IMG/VR virus record: IMGVR_UViG_2695420595_000022
Coordinates: 1-6,491 of that record
From: a virus
Taxonomy: Duplodnaviria > Heunggongvirae > Uroviricota > Caudoviricetes
DNA length: 6,491 nt
Strand: one strand, 5' to 3'
Part shown: piece after piece, positions 1 through 6,491 of the stretch
Layout of the letters: each line of letters opens with the position of its first letter
How positions within the stretch are numbered: the first letter of the stretch is position 1
Translations under genes and position numbers: made by a program
The notes under the pieces: generated by a model
Database searches by the model: none
Told to the model about the DNA's origin: nothing
What the model saw: the letters and a program-made list of their open reading frames with translations, nothing else

Positions 1-1509
1 ATGAAACCATCCATAGAACAACTTCTACATATCTACGGGCCGATGTCCTCATCTGCCTTAAGAGAAAAACTGATAGCCAATGGCCTAACAGAAGTTAACG
101 CCAGACAGCGAATCTCCCGCGTTGGAGGTGATGTTCAACGTTTTACTCATTTTTCTTTGCCCAAAAATGAAGCATTTCTCTATCTGACAAAGGACTATAA
201 CTCTCGTCGATATTGGATTGCATTGCTTGAAAGTCATGTAAATGCAAGAACAGTCTATGCTCACACCTTTTTCGCTTTCCACCCTTATCAAGGGGCGATC
301 CCGACATATCTTTTTAGCAAGGTTTCAGGGAGTCCGGACAAACTGAAGGGACACATTGCGTCAAGCCGTCTTGAAGCGCAATTGCTTAAAGGTTCAGTTC
401 TGCGTAGGGAAGTTGATGTCGTTTTGGGGGATTGTCTTGTTACTTACATAAATAATATTAACGGGGTAACGGATACCCAACATGTCCGAAACCAATTGCT
501 GGTTGAAGATATTCTCATTAAAGGTGTAGCTGACTGGATTAAACACAATAGCCTTGGCAGCTTTAATAAGGTCCAAGTCCGTAACTCTCAGAATATGCCT
601 TCATTTAGCCATCACCATTGGGACATATGTGCTCCGTCATATATTATGCCTTTAGCAACAGTACAAAAAGGTGAAATGAGTAATGGCTTCATTGTTGCAG
701 ATGTCATATACAATGATTTAGATAGCAAAAGCATCCAAACCTATCTCACGAAAGTACAGCGATGCAGAAATATGCGAAATACTCGCCCGTTTCTAGCTAT
801 GCTGATTGCAGAACGTTTTGATCCAGAAGCCTTTCGCCTTGCGAAACAAGCTGGTGTAATGGCTACAACAGTATCTAACCTACTTGGTCAAGACATTTCA
901 GCACTACTGTCCAGTTTATTAAATACTCTTAATCGTGCCAGTGCTATTGCGGCAGCAAACCCAGAAAAAATCAACGAACTATTTAAAGGACTTACGAGGA
1001 TTGAAGGCGCCGCAATCAATATAAGAGGCGTAATGTTTGAAATGTTAGTTGGTCACATCGTACTGAAAACCCAAAATGTCAGCACTGTGGACTTGAATAA
1101 ACAAATCAGTACCGAGGCAGGTAAGGCTGAAATAGATGTGATTGGTTTTAGAGGCGAAGCAGAAATTAAGTGCTACGAATGTAAAGGCTATGAAGTTAAG
1201 CGACTAATTTCAGTCGAAATGATCGAAAAGTGGCTCGAACGAGTTCAACGCATCAGAAAATTCTACAGTCAGATTCATGTGTACCGTGACCGAAAAATGA
1301 CTTTTTCATTCTGGACCTCATCAGATTTTGAACCTGAAGCACTTGAGCTGCTGCTTCATCAGAAGCAAAGAAATACAAAAATATCATTAGACTGGAAAAA
1401 TGGACGTGACATTCTTTCCATTGTTAAGGAAGACAATCTGAAATCAATTGCAGATGTTCTTCAGGAACATTATCTTCGACACCCACTGGCTCCTGATGCA
1501 GATATGTAA
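1..1509 (+). CDS. Hypothetical protein (502 aa); possible N-terminal winged-helix-like region and C-terminal PD-(D/E)xK nuclease-like core; candidate defence cargo
   Basis: Long uninterrupted ORF ending in TAA at 1507-1509; ATG at window position 1, so the true start could lie upstream. C-terminal segment GVMFEMLVGHIVLK...AEIDVIGFRGEAEIKCYECKGYEVKRL has the E / D / E-x-K order and spacing of PD-(D/E)xK nucleases (Mrr-catalytic-like FExLV...IDxI...xCK pattern). N-terminal IEQLLHIYGPMSSSALREKLIANGLTEVNARQRISRV looks helix-turn-helix-like. No Walker A motif and no HNH-type CxxC/His pattern seen. Sampled G+C is low (26/60 at 1-60, 22/60 at 421-480) against 36/60 at 3841-3900. Confidence 0.8.
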   Translation: MKPSIEQLLHIYGPMSSSALREKLIANGLTEVNARQRISRVGGDVQRFTHFSLPKNEAFLYLTKDYNSRRYWIALLESHVNARTVYAHTFFAFHPYQGAIPTYLFSKVSGSPDKLKGHIASSRLEAQLLKGSVLRREVDVVLGDCLVTYINNINGVTDTQHVRNQLLVEDILIKGVADWIKHNSLGSFNKVQVRNSQNMPSFSHHHWDICAPSYIMPLATVQKGEMSNGFIVADVIYNDLDSKSIQTYLTKVQRCRNMRNTRPFLAMLIAERFDPEAFRLAKQAGVMATTVSNLLGQDISALLSSLLNTLNRASAIAAANPEKINELFKGLTRIEGAAINIRGVMFEMLVGHIVLKTQNVSTVDLNKQISTEAGKAEIDVIGFRGEAEIKCYECKGYEVKRLISVEMIEKWLERVQRIRKFYSQIHVYRDRKMTFSFWTSSDFEPEALELLLHQKQRNTKISLDWKNGRDILSIVKEDNLKSIADVLQEHYLRHPLAPDADM

Positions 1510-1738
1510 TGTGGATAAGCCTAAGGTTTATTTAGCTGCCTTTGATGCTGTCTATTACCGAATTGTGATGGTCTGCCCAGTACAAAAATATCATTCTGGG
1601 CGAATTGATTTAGAGGGTTCACCGGCTCTAAGAGAGCCGATATATGGCTAGTGTCTGAGTTCCCAAGAGCTCGACAGTTTGGGCTGTAAAGTTGTGCTGT
1701 CTGCCAGCATCAATCTTTACCGGTGGCCTGCATCATGT

Positions 1739-2293
1739 CTAATCCCTGCCTACAGGAAATTTTCGGTATAGTGTTGACACTCCTACATCATAAATTAATG
1801 CTACGCGCTGACGCGTTTCTCCTGCAGCGATTAGTCTCCCTGCCTGCGCCCACTGCTCATCCGTTAGTTTTGGCTTACGTCCACCAATTCGTCCCTGTGC
1901 GCGAGCAGCTTCCAGTCCAGCTTTTGTTCGTTCAACAATCAGTTCACGCTCCATTTCAGCCAGGGCACCCATCACATGAAAGAAAAAGCGCCCCATTGGG
2001 GTACTAGTATCAATTGAATCCGTCAGACTACGAAAGTTGATGCCTCGTTCGCGCAACTCCTCAACCAGAATGACCAGATGCCGCATACTACGCCCCAGCC
2101 GATCCAGCTTCCAGACAACCAGAGTGTCACCTGCCGATAATGTCCTGAGCAGTTTTTTCAGTCCAGGCCTTTCGGACTTTGTACCGCTTATCTTGTCTTC
2201 AAAAATCAGCTCGCATCCTGCACAGTTCAGCGCATTACGTTGTAGATCTGTGTTCTGGTCATTTGTTGACACACGTACATAGCCAATAAGCAT
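1739..2293 (-). CDS. pin: Serine-recombinase DNA invertase (Pin/Gin/Hin/Cin family)
   Basis: Translation MLIGYVRVSTNDQNTDLQRNAL...LVVWKLDRLGRS...FFFHVMGALAEMERELIVERT...RQRVALIYDVGVSTLYRKF carries the resolvase/invertase catalytic-serine motif (YVRVSTNDQ) and a C-terminal HTH. The ORF track extends to 2329 (MASFLLLSGRST-), but family members start at MLIGYVRVS, so ATG at 2291-2293 is preferred; stop TAG at 1739-1741. Lies immediately beside crossover site A. Confidence 0.95.
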   Translation of the reverse strand: MLIGYVRVSTNDQNTDLQRNALNCAGCELIFEDKISGTKSERPGLKKLLRTLSAGDTLVVWKLDRLGRSMRHLVILVEELRERGINFRSLTDSIDTSTPMGRFFFHVMGALAEMERELIVERTKAGLEAARAQGRIGGRKPKLTDEQWAQAGRLIAAGETRQRVALIYDVGVSTLYRKFPVGRD

Positions 2294-2347
2294 GGTAGAT
2301 CTCCCTGACAAAAGCAGGAATGATGCCATTTGCTCGTTATTTCTGCA

Positions 2348-2373
2348 TTTTCATAAACGTTGGTTTGGGAGAA
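2348..2373. other. Invertase crossover site A (pix/gix/cix-like, pin-proximal type)
   Basis: TTTTCATAAACG-TT-GGTTTGGGAGAA: two imperfect 12-bp inverted half-sites around a 2-bp core, resembling the gix/cix/hix consensus. 2323..2374 is a perfect 52-bp reverse-complement match of 6440..6491, and the GGTTTGGGAGAA half-site is shared with site B. Confidence 0.8.
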
Positions 2374-4215
<1,842 letters not shown>

Positions 4216-4218
4216 TCC

Positions 4219-4962
4219 ATGCATCGTATAGACACGAAAACCGCGCAGAAGGATAAGTTCGGCGCGGGTAAGAACGGTTTTACCCGTGGTAACCCCCAGA
4301 CCGGCACACCTGCCACCGATCTGGATGATGACTACTTTGACATGTTGCAGGAAGAACTCTGCAGCGTGGTGGAGGCATCCGGTGCCAGCCTGGAGAAGGG
4401 GCGGCATGACCAGCTGCTTACCGCGCTTCGTGCGCTGCTGTTAAGCCGCAAGAATCCGTTTGGCGATATCAAATCTGATGGCACGGTGAAAACGGCTCTC
4501 GAAAACCTTGGTTTGGGAGAAGCGGCAAAACGAAATGTGGGCAACGGGGAAAACCAAATCCCTGATATGTCTTTCTGGACGGTTACTGGTGGCAATGGAA
4601 ATTTTGTGATTCGTCAACCTGACGGGCTAATCATTCAGATGGTTACTGTAAGTATAAGCGGTCCAGTGGCGATGAATGGAATGACTGATAATGCTTATGC
4701 CATTACAGGTTCTAATAAGTCTTATATTGCCACAGCCACATTGCCCTTTGTATTTCCTAATAAGGTGCTGGGCGTTATCCCTCTGGTATCAACAACAGCT
4801 TATGGTGGTGTATCCAGTAATATTACAGGTTCATACGCGACGGCGGTTTGTTCTTTTGCCGCTGTCAGGGGGAATAATACGATTGTGTTCAAAGTCGACA
4901 AACCACTGAATGCAGCCTTTCCTTCAGATACCAGCGTCTCAGCGTTAATCATTGGACGGTAA
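4219..4962 (+). CDS. stf: Tail-fibre protein with constant N-terminal part and invertible variable C-terminal part (currently expressed cassette)
   Basis: ATG at 4219 preceded by GGAG (4209-4212). The constant part ends ...[11 protein letters not shown], encoded across site B; the variable part [19 protein letters not shown]...GLIIQMV...LPFVFPNK... resembles tail-fibre receptor-binding tips. Stop TAA at 4960-4962. Confidence 0.85.
4496..4521. other. Invertase crossover site B (constant-side, pixL-type) inside the tail-fibre gene
   Basis: CTCTCGAAAACC-TT-GGTTTGGGAGAA: same architecture and same core (TT) as site A, with an identical GGTTTGGGAGAA half-site, in direct orientation to A and inverted relative to C. 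Confidence 0.8.
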
Positions 4963-4964
4963 GA

Positions 4965-5408
4965 ATGAACTCAGTATTCTTTTCACCCGCAAGTAAAAGT
5001 TTTTATCTGCAAGAATTGTTTCCAGAATATGAGGATGCGGGAACGCTTCCTGATGATGTTATTGAAATTACCAGAGAAACATATGAGCAATTTCTTGGGC
5101 TGCATCCAGAAGGGAAAGAAATTGGCGCTGACAGTTCAGGACGGCCAATATGGATTAATTCCCCGCCGCCTTCAAAAGAGGATGAGATGCTGGCGGCTGA
5201 AATGAAAAAGATATCTTTGGTTTCAGAAGTCAATACCTACATCAATACCCATCAGTGGCCTGGCAAAGCTGCTATTGGTCGTCTGAAAGGTTACGAGCTG
5301 GAACAATATAATTTATGGCTGGATTATCTGGACGCACTGGAACTGGTTGATACCTCCAGTGCTCCAGATATTGAATGGCCTACGCCTCCGGTAGTTCAGG
5401 CCAGATGA
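4965..5408 (+). CDS. tfa: Tail-fibre assembly protein (chaperone for cassette 1)
   Basis: 147-aa ORF starting 2 nt after the stf stop; C-terminus ...SSAPDIEWPTPPVVQAR has the conserved Tfa C-terminal APD(I/V)xWP motif. Confidence 0.85.
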   Translation: MNSVFFSPASKSFYLQELFPEYEDAGTLPDDVIEITRETYEQFLGLHPEGKEIGADSSGRPIWINSPPPSKEDEMLAAEMKKISLVSEVNTYINTHQWPGKAAIGRLKGYELEQYNLWLDYLDALELVDTSSAPDIEWPTPPVVQAR

Positions 5409-5985
5409 CATCCGGCGCGGTGCTGGTATCTGTTGCAGTCACCGCGTCAATGTAATCCAGCACAGCGTTAAGCCGGGTTGTTTCTGCCTGCGTCAGCTTC
5501 CGCCCGGCCTGCAATTTCAGCTGAATCAGACTAATGGAAGCCATAGCAGCATCAATCAGTGACTGGCGCCGTACTTCTGCCGCGTCTACTGCGGCGTTAT
5601 GCTGTGCCTCAGTATCGGTCACCCATTTCTCACCATCCCATTTATCGTATGACGTTAACGGGGCGATAGTGGTTGTATTTTCAGGGTAATCACCCGGAAC
5701 TGTGATTTCTTTTGATTCTCCTGTTTCGGTGCTATAGACGATTTCACCGCGATGGTCTGGCACATATTCCCATGAGTTAAAATCTGCAGAACGGCAAATT
5801 GCATAACCAGCTTTATATGAGCCAGGAGCATCTAAACAGGAACATGCCGGGATACCAACACCCACAGCAAGATATTCAGTTGATGTGGAAATATATTCCC
5901 GTGTTTCACCATCATAATTATAAACGGTAATGTCTCCGGCCTTTGTGGCGATGAGTTCATTATTTAATACAGCTTTACTTATCAT
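5380..5985 (-). CDS. tfa: Tail-fibre assembly protein (chaperone for cassette 2, inverted)
   Basis: 201-aa ORF on the minus strand; C-terminus ...TSTAPDVIWPELPEA matches the Tfa motif. Its ATG (5983-5985) overlaps the TGA stop of the upstream inverted tail-fibre cassette (ATGA coupling). Confidence 0.85.
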   Translation of the reverse strand: MISKAVLNNELIATKAGDITVYNYDGETREYISTSTEYLAVGVGIPACSCLDAPGSYKAGYAICRSADFNSWEYVPDHRGEIVYSTETGESKEITVPGDYPENTTTIAPLTSYDKWDGEKWVTDTEAQHNAAVDAAEVRRQSLIDAAMASISLIQLKLQAGRKLTQAETTRLNAVLDYIDAVTATDTSTAPDVIWPELPEA

Positions 5986-6491
5986 GCAGCCCTCACAATA
6001 TAATTAAAGGCGATGTTACGGGAGCGGGTTTCAGATGCTGTGCGAACTGAGCGAGATGCGTCGAATGTCCAGTTATAAGCGCCATAACCCTCAATAATTT
6101 CGGCTTCCTTTAGACCTGTAGATAATACTTGCCCATGTTGACTAAATGGCCCTGAACTAAGTACGTCTCTAAAAAGCTGGGTACGCCCAAAAGAACCAAC
6201 AATATTCTGAATTGCATCATTCTGTGCAGATAATAAGTTACGACCAGAGTCAATCCCGCGCCCATCATCCCAGCCACGAATAAATTCACCGCGTAAATCT
6301 GGTAATTTTAATGTTGGGTAAGCCTTTGCCAGATTTGGGTACTTTTCAGAAGAAAATACTGCTCCGTTACATTTTAGCCACCCCGTTGGCGGAGTGGCGG
6401 AAGGCCACGGAACAGGCACACCAACGGGTAATGCCGAACCTTCTCCCAAACCAACGTTTATGAAAATGCAGAAATAACGAGCAAATGGCAT
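5982..6491 (-). CDS. stf: Alternative tail-fibre C-terminal variable cassette (silent, inverted orientation)
   Basis: Translation (MPFARYFCIFINVGLGE)GSALPVGVPVPWPSATPPTGWLKCNGAVFSSEKYPNLAKAYPTLKLPDLRGEFIRGWDDGRGIDSGRNLL... is a typical tail-fibre tip of invertible tail-fibre systems. The first ~8 codons, including the ATG at the window edge, lie outside site C; inversion at B x C would fuse the cassette in frame to the constant part at GLGE. Confidence 0.8.
   Translation of the reverse strand: MPFARYFCIFINVGLGEGSALPVGVPVPWPSATPPTGWLKCNGAVFSSEKYPNLAKAYPTLKLPDLRGEFIRGWDDGRGIDSGRNLLSAQNDAIQNIVGSFGRTQLFRDVLSSGPFSQHGQVLSTGLKEAEIIEGYGAYNWTFDASRSVRTASETRSRNIAFNYIVRAA
6441..6466. other. Invertase crossover site C (pin-proximal type, inverted relative to A and B)
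   Basis: TTCTCCCAAACC-AA-CGTTTATGAAAA is the exact reverse complement of site A. Perfect identity extends over 52 bp (6440..6491 vs 2323..2374) and is limited by the window end. Confidence 0.8.

Follow-up and report, generated by a model that had tools for sequence, protein, structure and literature searches.

The region from 4496 to 6466 is almost certainly the invertible P segment of an e14/SfV-type prophage with a Mu-like tail module. The system is already known, as the Pin-invertible "P segment" of e14-like E. coli prophages, and is not new. The e14 P segment was first described in the 1980s. It was re-examined in 2014 and 2025 (PMC4272514, PMC12529663). The DNA switch is real, complete and active in nature, and it is housed in a decayed prophage remnant. 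Judged by sequence, its cassettes are a different allele of the e14 P segment, not the K-12 alleles.

The window, i.e., the whole stretch that we analysed, has a length of 6,491 nt and covers positions 1 to 6,491 of the Caudoviricetes virus record IMGVR_UViG_2695420595_000022. As a DNA switch it adds nothing new, and its value is modest. Comparison between genomes does show that flipping goes on after the prophage has lost its virion genes, which fits a recent claim of host reuse for phage defence.

Architecture of the switch

Sites B and C are 26-bp imperfect dyads with a 12 + 2 + 12 layout, and they bound the segment in inverted orientation. An earlier note on this DNA had described them as inverted sites with compatible cores, and this was correct: the core is TT in both when each is read toward its cassette, so the two are compatible for inversion. 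A repeat finder places the arms common to both at 4503-4522 and 6440-6459 (20 nt, 95% complementary), and the window contains exactly three copies of the 19-nt core pattern AAACSTTGGTTTGGGAGAA, versus none in 200 shuffles. Both sites are base-for-base equal to those of the E. coli K-12 e14 P segment, and they share 18 of 26 bases and the 12-2-12 layout with Mu gix (taken from the Mu genome).

The third copy of AAACSTTGGTTTGGGAGAA, at 2355-2373, is site A, and a 52-nt perfect inverted repeat (2323-2374 and 6440-6491) covers sites A and C. The earlier note's strictly two-state scheme is therefore too simple, as this third compatible site comes with a truncated cassette and an invertase copy. We also considered a multiple-inversion system with extra internal sites and rejected it, because a search allowing up to three mismatches revealed no more sites within the segment. 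Several prophages in one genome have these crossover sites in common. Shared sites make cassette exchange and chromosomal rearrangement between such prophages possible.

Table 1. Features of the window, with positions, strand and main characteristics
Feature	Position	Strand	Details
Pin-type serine DNA invertase, intact	1739-2293	-	184 aa; Pfam Resolvase E 9e-52, HTH_7 E 3e-14
Crossover site A	2348-2373	+	Identical to site C; direct relative to B, inverted relative to C
Truncated third tip cassette, gp53-like	2374-2584	+	Cut ~70 residues past GLGE; Pfam Gp53-like_C E 7e-8
IS3-family element, internally truncated (orfA + partial orfB)	2575-3650	-	Pfam HTH_Tnp_1, rve; decapitates the fibre operon
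ymfQ (Mu gp48-like baseplate wedge gene), own first 7 codons gone	3643-4215	+	Pfam Phage_Mu_Gp48 E 1e-26
Sc, constant 5' part of short tail-fibre gene	4219-4521	+	101 aa, ends ...ENLGLGE; StfP N-terminus orthologue
Crossover site B	4496-4521	+	26 bp: CTCTCGAAAACC TT GGTTTGGGAGAA; same as K-12 e14 site, L004 3779-3804
Tip cassette 1 (Sv1)	4522-4962	+	146 aa; now fused to Sc as a 247-aa fibre, ORF 4219-4962
Tfa1, tail-fibre assembly chaperone	4965-5408	+	147 aa; Pfam Caudo_TAP E 6e-27
Tfa2, tail-fibre assembly chaperone, TfaE orthologue	5380-5985	-	201 aa; Pfam Caudo_TAP E 6e-32
Tip cassette 2 (Sv2)	5982-6440	-	GSALPVGVPVPWP...GWLKCNG...; now joined to the invertase-proximal leader
Crossover site C	6441-6466	-	26 bp: TTTTCATAAACG TT GGTTTGGGAGAA; same as K-12 e14 site, L004 5606-5631
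Invertase-proximal leader	6441-6491	-	ATG + 17 codons, MPFARYFCIFINVGLGE; heads whichever cassette is not on Sc

The constant part matches residues 1-101 of K-12 StfP at 100 of 101 amino acids, and an in-silico flip confirms that it reads in frame into either cassette. As sequenced, the 147-aa Tfa gene starts 2 nt past the 247-aa fibre. Simulated exchange at the core yields a 253-aa in-frame protein of Sc and tip 2 (...ENLGLGEGSALPVGVPVPWP...), ending in a stop that overlaps the start codon of the 201-aa Tfa gene (ATGA). The earlier note had assigned each orientation its own Tfa (147 and 201 aa), and both ORFs do match Pfam Caudo_TAP. Tfa1 shares 53% identity with K-12 TfaP, the C-terminal half being the conserved part, and Tfa2 is 91% identical to K-12 TfaE; the 3' ends of the two genes overlap by 29 nt. 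For the second Tfa, RefSeq gives 200 aa in identical DNA, and the ATG at 5985 gives 201 aa. Tip class pairs with Tfa class across 14 cassettes from eight loci.

The two tips, which the same note had called unrelated, indeed have no similarity that BLASTP can detect (E 2.8). Tip 2 matches Pfam Collar (E 2e-15) and two PDB entries, 9cuy 'Short tail fiber' (E 5e-24) and the T4 gp37 tip 2xgf (E 3e-15). Tip 1 matches Pfam Gp53-like_C weakly (E 1e-4, below Pfam's cut-off), has no relative in the PDB, and finds a best match of 35% identity among 50,697 phage records; its single-sequence AlphaFold2 model has a mean pLDDT of 45.6, too low for use. Neither the deposited phage genomes nor the solved structures contain anything closely related to tip 1. 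The different families of the tips (Gp53-like_C versus Collar) and their mutual dissimilarity are indirect hints that the two fibres may serve different receptors. The tip/chaperone cassette of the window's allele is common in E. coli chromosomes yet uncharacterised.

The cassette which is not on Sc has a reading frame too. The leader and tip 2 form an ORF (5982-6491) that is annotated as a gene in identical DNA, and after a flip the leader and tip 1 form a 163-aa ORF that is annotated in strain 602687. The earlier note was right that tip 1 is fused to the constant part as sequenced, but "silent" was an assumption for tip 2, whose ORF has its own ATG and may be expressed. A promoter and terminator scan of 1500-6491 gave counts at or below shuffle expectation, with no promoter-like signal above chance for either the leader ORF or the fibre ORF.

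Residues 1-183 of the invertase align to Mu Gin (PDB 3uj3, E 2e-92), its motif MLIGYVRVSTNDQ with Ser9 is present, and it is 93% identical to K-12 PinE. An identical invertase allele flanks a segment which is flipped between two loci, L007 and L008. The window ends 25 nt past site C, and a right-hand invertase is predicted from identical loci: elsewhere, every stretch of DNA that is 100% identical to window 2575-6491 runs on into pinE 30 nt later. Two matches to KNNYRNNWNNYRNNM, which we take to be the Fis consensus, lie 48 bp apart at positions 23 and 71 of the invertase gene. Such a pair, suggestive but weak, appears in 3% of shuffles; it is conserved in four pinE alleles and absent in SKA5.

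We propose that a Pin-family serine invertase binds sites B and C, either copy (the one at 1739-2293 or the one predicted beyond the window's right end) being a candidate. If Gin and Hin are a guide, Fis, a host protein, would also be needed, bound to an enhancer inside the invertase gene. The invertase would make 2-bp staggered cuts at the TT cores, rotate one half-site pair by 180 degrees and religate, thereby inverting the ~1.94-kb segment. Crossover falls within the codons for ...N-L-G-L-G-E, so either tip comes to follow the 101-aa constant N-terminus in frame. State 1, the sequenced one, has Sc with the gp53-like tip 1, then Tfa1, and state 2 has Sc with the Collar-type tip 2, then Tfa2; the cassette off Sc is meanwhile attached to the 17-codon leader beside the invertase. 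In the ancestral phage, this switch would have alternated receptor specificity. Here, in a remnant, the DNA switch persists and goes on flipping while no longer setting the host range of a phage at the locus.

Flipping in natural genomes

When flipped in silico, the window matches E. coli 602687 with 100% identity over 3,917 nt, and when left unflipped it is 100% identical to strain PS1Thumoskin9. The flanks of 602687 and PS1Thumoskin9 are 100% and 99.9% identical, and they have the same IS/ymfQ junction. Since both orientations lie behind this same derived junction, and their interiors are 100% identical, the flips postdate the IS insertion. The identical IS-truncated YmfQ occurs in ten places, five oriented as here, four flipped and one with a cassette exchanged with another prophage.

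Breakpoints of the natural flips lie inside the 15 nt shared by sites B and C, and between L007 and L008 a half-site polymorphism (GGTTTG versus GGTTTT) moves with the cassette. Tip 1 is on Sc in 39 complete E. coli genomes and beside the invertase in 159. The closest assembly, L027, contains both arrangements: a contig end joins tip 2 to Sc, and the body joins tip 1 to Sc. For K-12, orientations of the e14 P segment are reported to coexist within MG1655 cultures (PMC4272514), with inversion driven by PinE, PinQ and PinR (PMC12529663).

The earlier note's central claim, an invertase-driven switch that brings either of two fibre/chaperone cassettes into frame, is thus borne out by the sites, the frames and the occurrence of both orientations. 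Frame loss or an inactivated invertase with a fixed orientation, which it had named as contrary outcomes, is not what we found: the frame is kept, the invertase is intact, and both orientations occur in otherwise identical loci.

Decayed surroundings and present function

The IS fragment, which ends at approximately 3650, stands in place of the first 7 codons of ymfQ and all preceding baseplate/tail genes. Linked intact baseplate/tail genes for fibre-bearing particles are absent upstream of ymfQ in the window. What remains of YmfQ is 97% identical to the K-12 protein. Intact relatives align to the window from 3652 on only, and in them baseplate J overlaps the ymfQ start; L003, for example, has ymfQ and the baseplate genes intact. 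From window position 2575 onward, the IS is 100% identical to that of L001. In other strains, the neighbour of the identical remnants is an autotransporter pseudogene and not phage DNA. The earlier note had taken "host-range switch" as the present function, and here we disagree: with an IS fragment in place of all that lay upstream of ymfQ, this copy encodes no virion whose host range could be switched.

Left of the IS is a different piece of DNA, containing an invertase and a 502-aa ORF (no matches in PDB, NCBIfam or Pfam). The truncated third cassette is ~94-95% identical to the invertase-adjacent cassette at the e14 locus of 602687. The junction that links the left invertase and site A to the IS is non-canonical, with a 10-nt microhomology inside the IS, and it is absent from 5,426 complete genomes. 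Neither start version of the chimeric ORF that spans the cassette 3/IS junction has a database record, and L027 has a different cassette 3/IS junction. The link between the window's left third and the switch could therefore be unstable, or an artefact of assembly.

With the virion genes gone, it is very unlikely that the locus is a working host-range switch of a complete phage, i.e., one in which the fibre on virions alternates receptor specificity. Relatives with the same Sc, sites and cassettes (ES5, CD45 and SKA5) do have complete Mu-like tail modules, and CD45 has both a window-identical remnant and an intact prophage whose P segment is 99.5% identical, so supply of fibre in trans is conceivable. 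However, the genes upstream of ymfQ have been replaced, the DNA further left is other DNA with an invertase and the 502-aa ORF, and the border of identical remnants elsewhere is a pseudogene. We give almost no credence to the opposite extreme, a frozen relic that has stopped inverting in this strain and whose orientation differences are an old polymorphism or the product of rare homologous recombination across the 20-nt repeat. The frequency of Fis-site pairs in shuffles would be compatible with such a relic, but the shared derived junction, the intact invertase ORF, the two joins in L027, the breakpoints within 15 nt and the polymorphism that travels with its cassette all argue against it. 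A 20-nt repeat is a poor RecA substrate. We discarded the idea that RecA-type recombination produced the flips, given a shared stretch of only 15-20 nt and breakpoints that follow the core.

Domestication by the host is possible, though on balance we doubt it. The element would then be a phase-variable anti-phage device, in which leader + tip 1 (163 aa), and possibly Sc + tip 2, block adsorption in the manner of K-12 StfE2/StfP2. The DNA mechanism is the same as in our main explanation, and the difference is in present function only. There is a reported precedent: inversion of K-12 e14 creates StfE2 (stfE leader + gp53-like tip of StfP), a protein that blocks T2 adsorption and gives protection against several phages (Kirigo et al., PMC12529663). 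The window shares this leader, to which a flip would join a gp53-like tip, all remnant ORFs are intact, and flips have occurred repeatedly since the IS insertion. However, at 30% identity, tip 1 is too distant from the K-12 StfP tip for the K-12 phenotype to be simply transferable. The scan of 1500-6491 gave no promoter signal, and the remnants are near-identical, so their intact ORFs are no proof of purifying selection. Furthermore, the basis of the K-12 result was protein expressed from a plasmid, together with docking models (PMC12529663).

A more elaborate version strikes us as unlikely: the host would keep a minimal remnant, reduced to ymfQ, fibre, P segment and invertase, as a phase-variable defence against phages, flipped tip 1 behind the leader would block a phage set other than that of K-12 StfE2, and the shared sites would let invertases shuffle tips between loci. 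Cassette shuffling between loci fits the break at window position 2374 and the locus L026. Our preferred reading remains that of an e14-type P segment which still flips inside a decayed prophage.

Comparison with known systems

The K-12 e14 P segment (stfP-tfaP-tfaE-stfE + pinE) has not only the same two 26-bp sites but also the same gene order, the same 29-nt convergent tfa overlap and the same 17-aa invertase-proximal leader, with 3 substitutions. In the order ymfQ - Sc/Sv - tfa - tfa' - Sv' - pin, the window has ymfQ to Sv', and pinE follows 30 nt on in identical DNA elsewhere. The alleles differ in their contents. Tip 1, 30% identical to the K-12 StfP tip, is also longer (146 versus 108 aa), Tfa1 (53% identical to TfaP) differs in its N-terminal half, and tip 2 shares 66% identity with stfE but differs in the middle. 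The segment spans ~1.94 kb, versus 1,797 bp reported for K-12 (PMC12529663). Unlike K-12 e14, the window locus is interrupted at ymfQ by an IS and has a third site with a truncated cassette.

The Mu G segment (S/U, S'/U', Gin), to which the P1 C segment (Cin) is related, is built in a similar way. The window's invertase aligns full length to Gin, crossover in Mu occurs in the same ...NLGL... fibre peptide, each variable part has its own Tfa, and the invertase lies directly beyond the segment and points away from it, as in the window's system. However, the constant part is 101 aa in the window versus 169 aa (509 nt) in Mu S, the total fibre is ~250 versus 504 aa, the core is TT versus TC, and the segment is ~1.9 versus ~3 kb. 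The window copy, moreover, is not in a viable phage.

SfV/SfIV (Shigella) and SKA5 (Escherichia) combine a lambdoid head with a Mu-like tail, and their ymfQ + Sc DNA is 91-96% identical to the window. All of them are complete phages, with tips unlike tip 1. In SKA5 both cassettes of the segment are present, as is an invertase; in SfIV an IS has cost the phage its invertase and one cassette. The isolated phage SKA5 and the intact prophages ES5 and CD45 have the window's module together with baseplate genes and an invertase. Lastly, the K-12 PinQ/PinE-StfE2 adsorption block (2025) involves the same type of DNA element as the window, in which a flip would likewise set a gp53-like tip behind the same leader, although that tip is only 30% identical to its K-12 counterpart.

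Inverted sites, reading frames and paired cassettes

The segment between crossover sites B and C is built as an invertible cassette pair. An earlier note on this DNA had claimed inverted sites with compatible cores, which we confirm: B lies on the plus strand and C on the minus strand, and because both cores are TT, each read towards its own cassette, they are compatible for inversion. The arms common to B and C (20 nt) show 95% complementarity by repeat finder, and the window contains three copies of the 19-nt core pattern, versus none in 200 shuffles.

Features of the window and their coordinates
Feature	Position	Strand	Remarks
502-aa ORF	1-1509	+	without family match
Serine invertase, 184 aa, intact	1739-2293	-	Resolvase + HTH_7
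Crossover site A, 26 bp	2348-2373		third copy of 19-nt core pattern
Gp53-like tip cassette (cassette 3)	to 2584		first part only
IS3-family element	2575-3650	-	internally truncated
ymfQ	3643-4215		Mu gp48-like baseplate wedge gene
Short tail-fibre gene, 247 aa	4219-4962
Crossover site B	4496-4521		CTCTCGAAAACC TT GGTTTGGGAGAA
tfa1, 147 aa	4965-5408		Caudo_TAP, strong match
tfa2, 201 aa	5380-5985	-	Caudo_TAP, strong match; convergent with tfa1
169-aa ORF	5982-6491	-	17-aa leader + Collar-type tip
Crossover site C	6441-6466		minus strand reads TTTTCATAAACG TT GGTTTGGGAGAA

Also as claimed, either tip (alternative fibre end) is joined in frame to Sc, the constant N-terminal part of the fibre, and is then followed by its own Tfa chaperone gene. 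As sequenced, Sc continues into tip 1; with exchange at the core simulated, Sc (101 aa), ending ENLGLGE, is read in frame into GSALPVGVPVPWP..., the stop of the resulting 253-aa protein overlaps the tfa2 ATG, and the other cassette comes to stand behind the leader MPFARYFCIFINVGLGE as a 163-aa ORF.

Tip 2, a Collar-family member, is similar to a short tail fibre of solved structure and to the tip of T4 gp37. Tip 1 is uncharacterised: it matches Gp53-like_C weakly, has no relative in PDB, and in 50,697 phage records its top match is 35% identical. No similarity was detected between the tips, in agreement with the note, whose description of the cassettes as "matched" is supported at class level, since in the 14 cassettes compared, from 8 loci, a Collar-type tip is always paired with a Tfa of ~200 aa with one common C-terminal region, and Gp53-like tips with a Tfa of another class (129-147 aa). 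The convergent tfa genes run into each other at their 3' ends, with a 29-nt overlap (5380-5408). They also have in common an 18-nt imperfect inverted repeat (5318-5335 and 5444-5461), explained by homologous Tfa C-terminal regions (33% identity over 80 aa).

Both orientations in related genomes

The note proposed a read-pair check for flipping, in place of which we compared genomes. Window positions 2575-6491 are 100% identical to strain PS1Thumoskin9, and the same 3,917 nt, flipped in silico, are 100% identical to strain 602687. The flanks of these two strains are also near-identical (100% over 6,263 nt and 99.9% over 2,802 nt), so both orientations of the segment do exist in otherwise matching loci. 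Because both lie behind the same IS/ymfQ junction, the inversion is later than the insertion of the IS. The IS-truncated YmfQ was located in ten places: five as in the window, four flipped and one exchanged, with a P2-like prophage cassette beyond site B. Of 5,426 complete E. coli genomes, 39 have tip 1 fused to Sc and 159 have it adjoining the invertase; the Sc-tip 2 type of junction occurs in 512.

The window's invertase allele (DNA 100% identical over 1-2374) borders a segment that has opposite orientations in assemblies L007 and L008, where a G/T polymorphism in the inner half-site travels with the cassette, which locates the exchange at the core or right beside it. The mechanism is most likely that of the Gin/Hin/Cin/Pin family: invertase dimers bound at the two sites would cut the 2-bp core in staggered fashion, and rotation would be followed by religation. 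In this family, the reaction is activated by Fis bound to an enhancer inside the invertase gene. A candidate pair of Fis-consensus matches, conserved in four pinE alleles, lies 48 bp apart at invertase gene positions 23 and 71, although 3% of shuffles also contain one. For the e14 P segment (the Pin-invertible segment of the K-12 cryptic prophage e14), both orientations coexist in MG1655 cultures (PMC4272514), and inversion is carried out by PinE, PinQ and PinR (PMC12529663).

Draft contigs tend to stop at or inside crossover sites (e.g., the ends of L010, L011, L014 and L027). At the end of L027 (10797-10865), tip 2 is joined through a garbled site to the reverse complement of Sc, unlike the contig body, which joins tip 1 to Sc; this is consistent with either mixed orientations in the sequenced cultures or assembly breaks at repeats. 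At locus L026 (CP148297.1, 8854-10263), the IS/ymfQ/constant-part remnant is as in the window, and beyond site B stands the cassette of a P2-like prophage, which has an invertase of its own (188 aa) and a nearly identical site, TTTTCTTAAACG TT GGTTTGGGAGAA, an arrangement which indicates recombination between prophages at common crossover sites.

Site A, host range and a possible defence role

The note called the segment a two-state switch, but the window holds three compatible sites. Over 52 nt, the site A region repeats the site C region perfectly in inverted orientation (A being identical to C and direct relative to B); like C it sits beside a leader, here with an invertase copy (1739-2293, minus strand), and it carries the truncated cassette 3 (leader, site and cassette together at 2323-2584, plus strand). 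The ssrA-adjacent end of prophages such as L007 matches window positions 1-2374 at 100% identity. This match breaks off precisely where site A has its inner edge, which suggests that prophages exchanged cassettes at the crossover site. Positions 2375-2584 are ~94-95% identical to the invertase-adjacent cassette at the e14 locus of 602687.

The IS takes over at 2575, starting inside the element, and shares a 10-nt overlap, or microhomology (ACCCATTCTG), with cassette 3; here (2575-2670) the IS is without ~170 nt of its orfB 3' end and its terminal repeat. This junction is absent from the 5,426 complete E. coli genomes, and L027, the closest assembly, has another junction, although the DNA on either side of it matches at 100% identity. 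It is either an illegitimate-recombination scar in a genuinely unstable region or an assembly artefact at repeats, so the three-site reading is provisional; the B/C switch is unaffected.

The host-range role does not hold for this copy, because the IS (end ~3650) has replaced the first seven codons of ymfQ and all the baseplate and tail genes that precede it in intact relatives. Strains with an identical remnant have an autotransporter pseudogene on the other side of the IS. An Rfam isrC match (Hfq-binding sRNA, 150 bits) lies at 3465-3587 on the minus strand, inside the orfA region of the element. At the e14 locus of 602687 (at icd; L017 3967-6630) are pinE, a gp53-like cassette, tfa, an IS3-family transposase and a truncated tail-terminator gene. 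This order is that of the e14 locus proper in remnant-carrying strains, and its IS is the same as the window's, so IS copies cut two related prophages in one genome.

The supposedly silent, invertase-proximal cassette is not obviously silent, having its own ATG and a RefSeq gene annotation. By analogy with K-12, where StfE2 is formed after inversion and reportedly blocks adsorption of T2 and gives protection from several phages (PMC12529663), the remnant might have been domesticated to serve the host. We consider this rather unlikely: the K-12 tip is no more than a distant relative of tip 1, and a promoter scan gave no signal. The window's orientation corresponds to the MG1655 reference, which is treated as non-inverted, with StfE2 not formed (PMC12529663). 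Should the remnant turn out to work as a phase-variable device against phages, with a new tip, the upside would be modest.

The 502-aa ORF may be a defence gene candidate. Pfam, NCBIfam and PDB gave no match to it and PADLOC only a weak one, to LmuA (E 0.007, aa 368-485); it fills the cargo slot beside the invertase that holds mcrA in K-12 e14 and a GIY-YIG protein in strains ES5 and CD45. Together with the invertase, it adjoins ssrA in many E. coli assemblies.

Relation to e14 and other known systems

Judged by its sequence, the element is the e14 P segment with a different tip 1/Tfa1 allele. In K-12 e14, both flanking sites are identical base for base to B and C, gene order and the 29-nt tfa overlap are as in the window, and the proteins are close (Sc 100/101 identical to StfP, YmfQ 97%, Tfa2 91% to TfaE, invertase 93% to PinE). 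The alleles diverge at three points: tip 1, with 30% identity to the StfP tip; Tfa1, 53% identical overall and divergent in its N-terminal half; and tip 2, at 66%, in its middle part. The alignment with Mu Gin (PDB 3uj3, E 2e-92) covers the whole invertase, with the catalytic Ser9 present, and Mu gix, taken from the Mu genome, has the same 12-2-12 layout as the window's sites (18/26 bases identical) and likewise falls where the fibre gene encodes ...NLGL.... There are complete relatives: in strains ES5 and CD45 the same cassettes follow a full Mu-like tail and baseplate module; SfV and SfIV have the constant part in common with the window; and the isolated phage SKA5 has the whole arrangement, invertase included. 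Public genomes and the literature already contain this kind of element and its mechanism, and even the identical DNA in each orientation.
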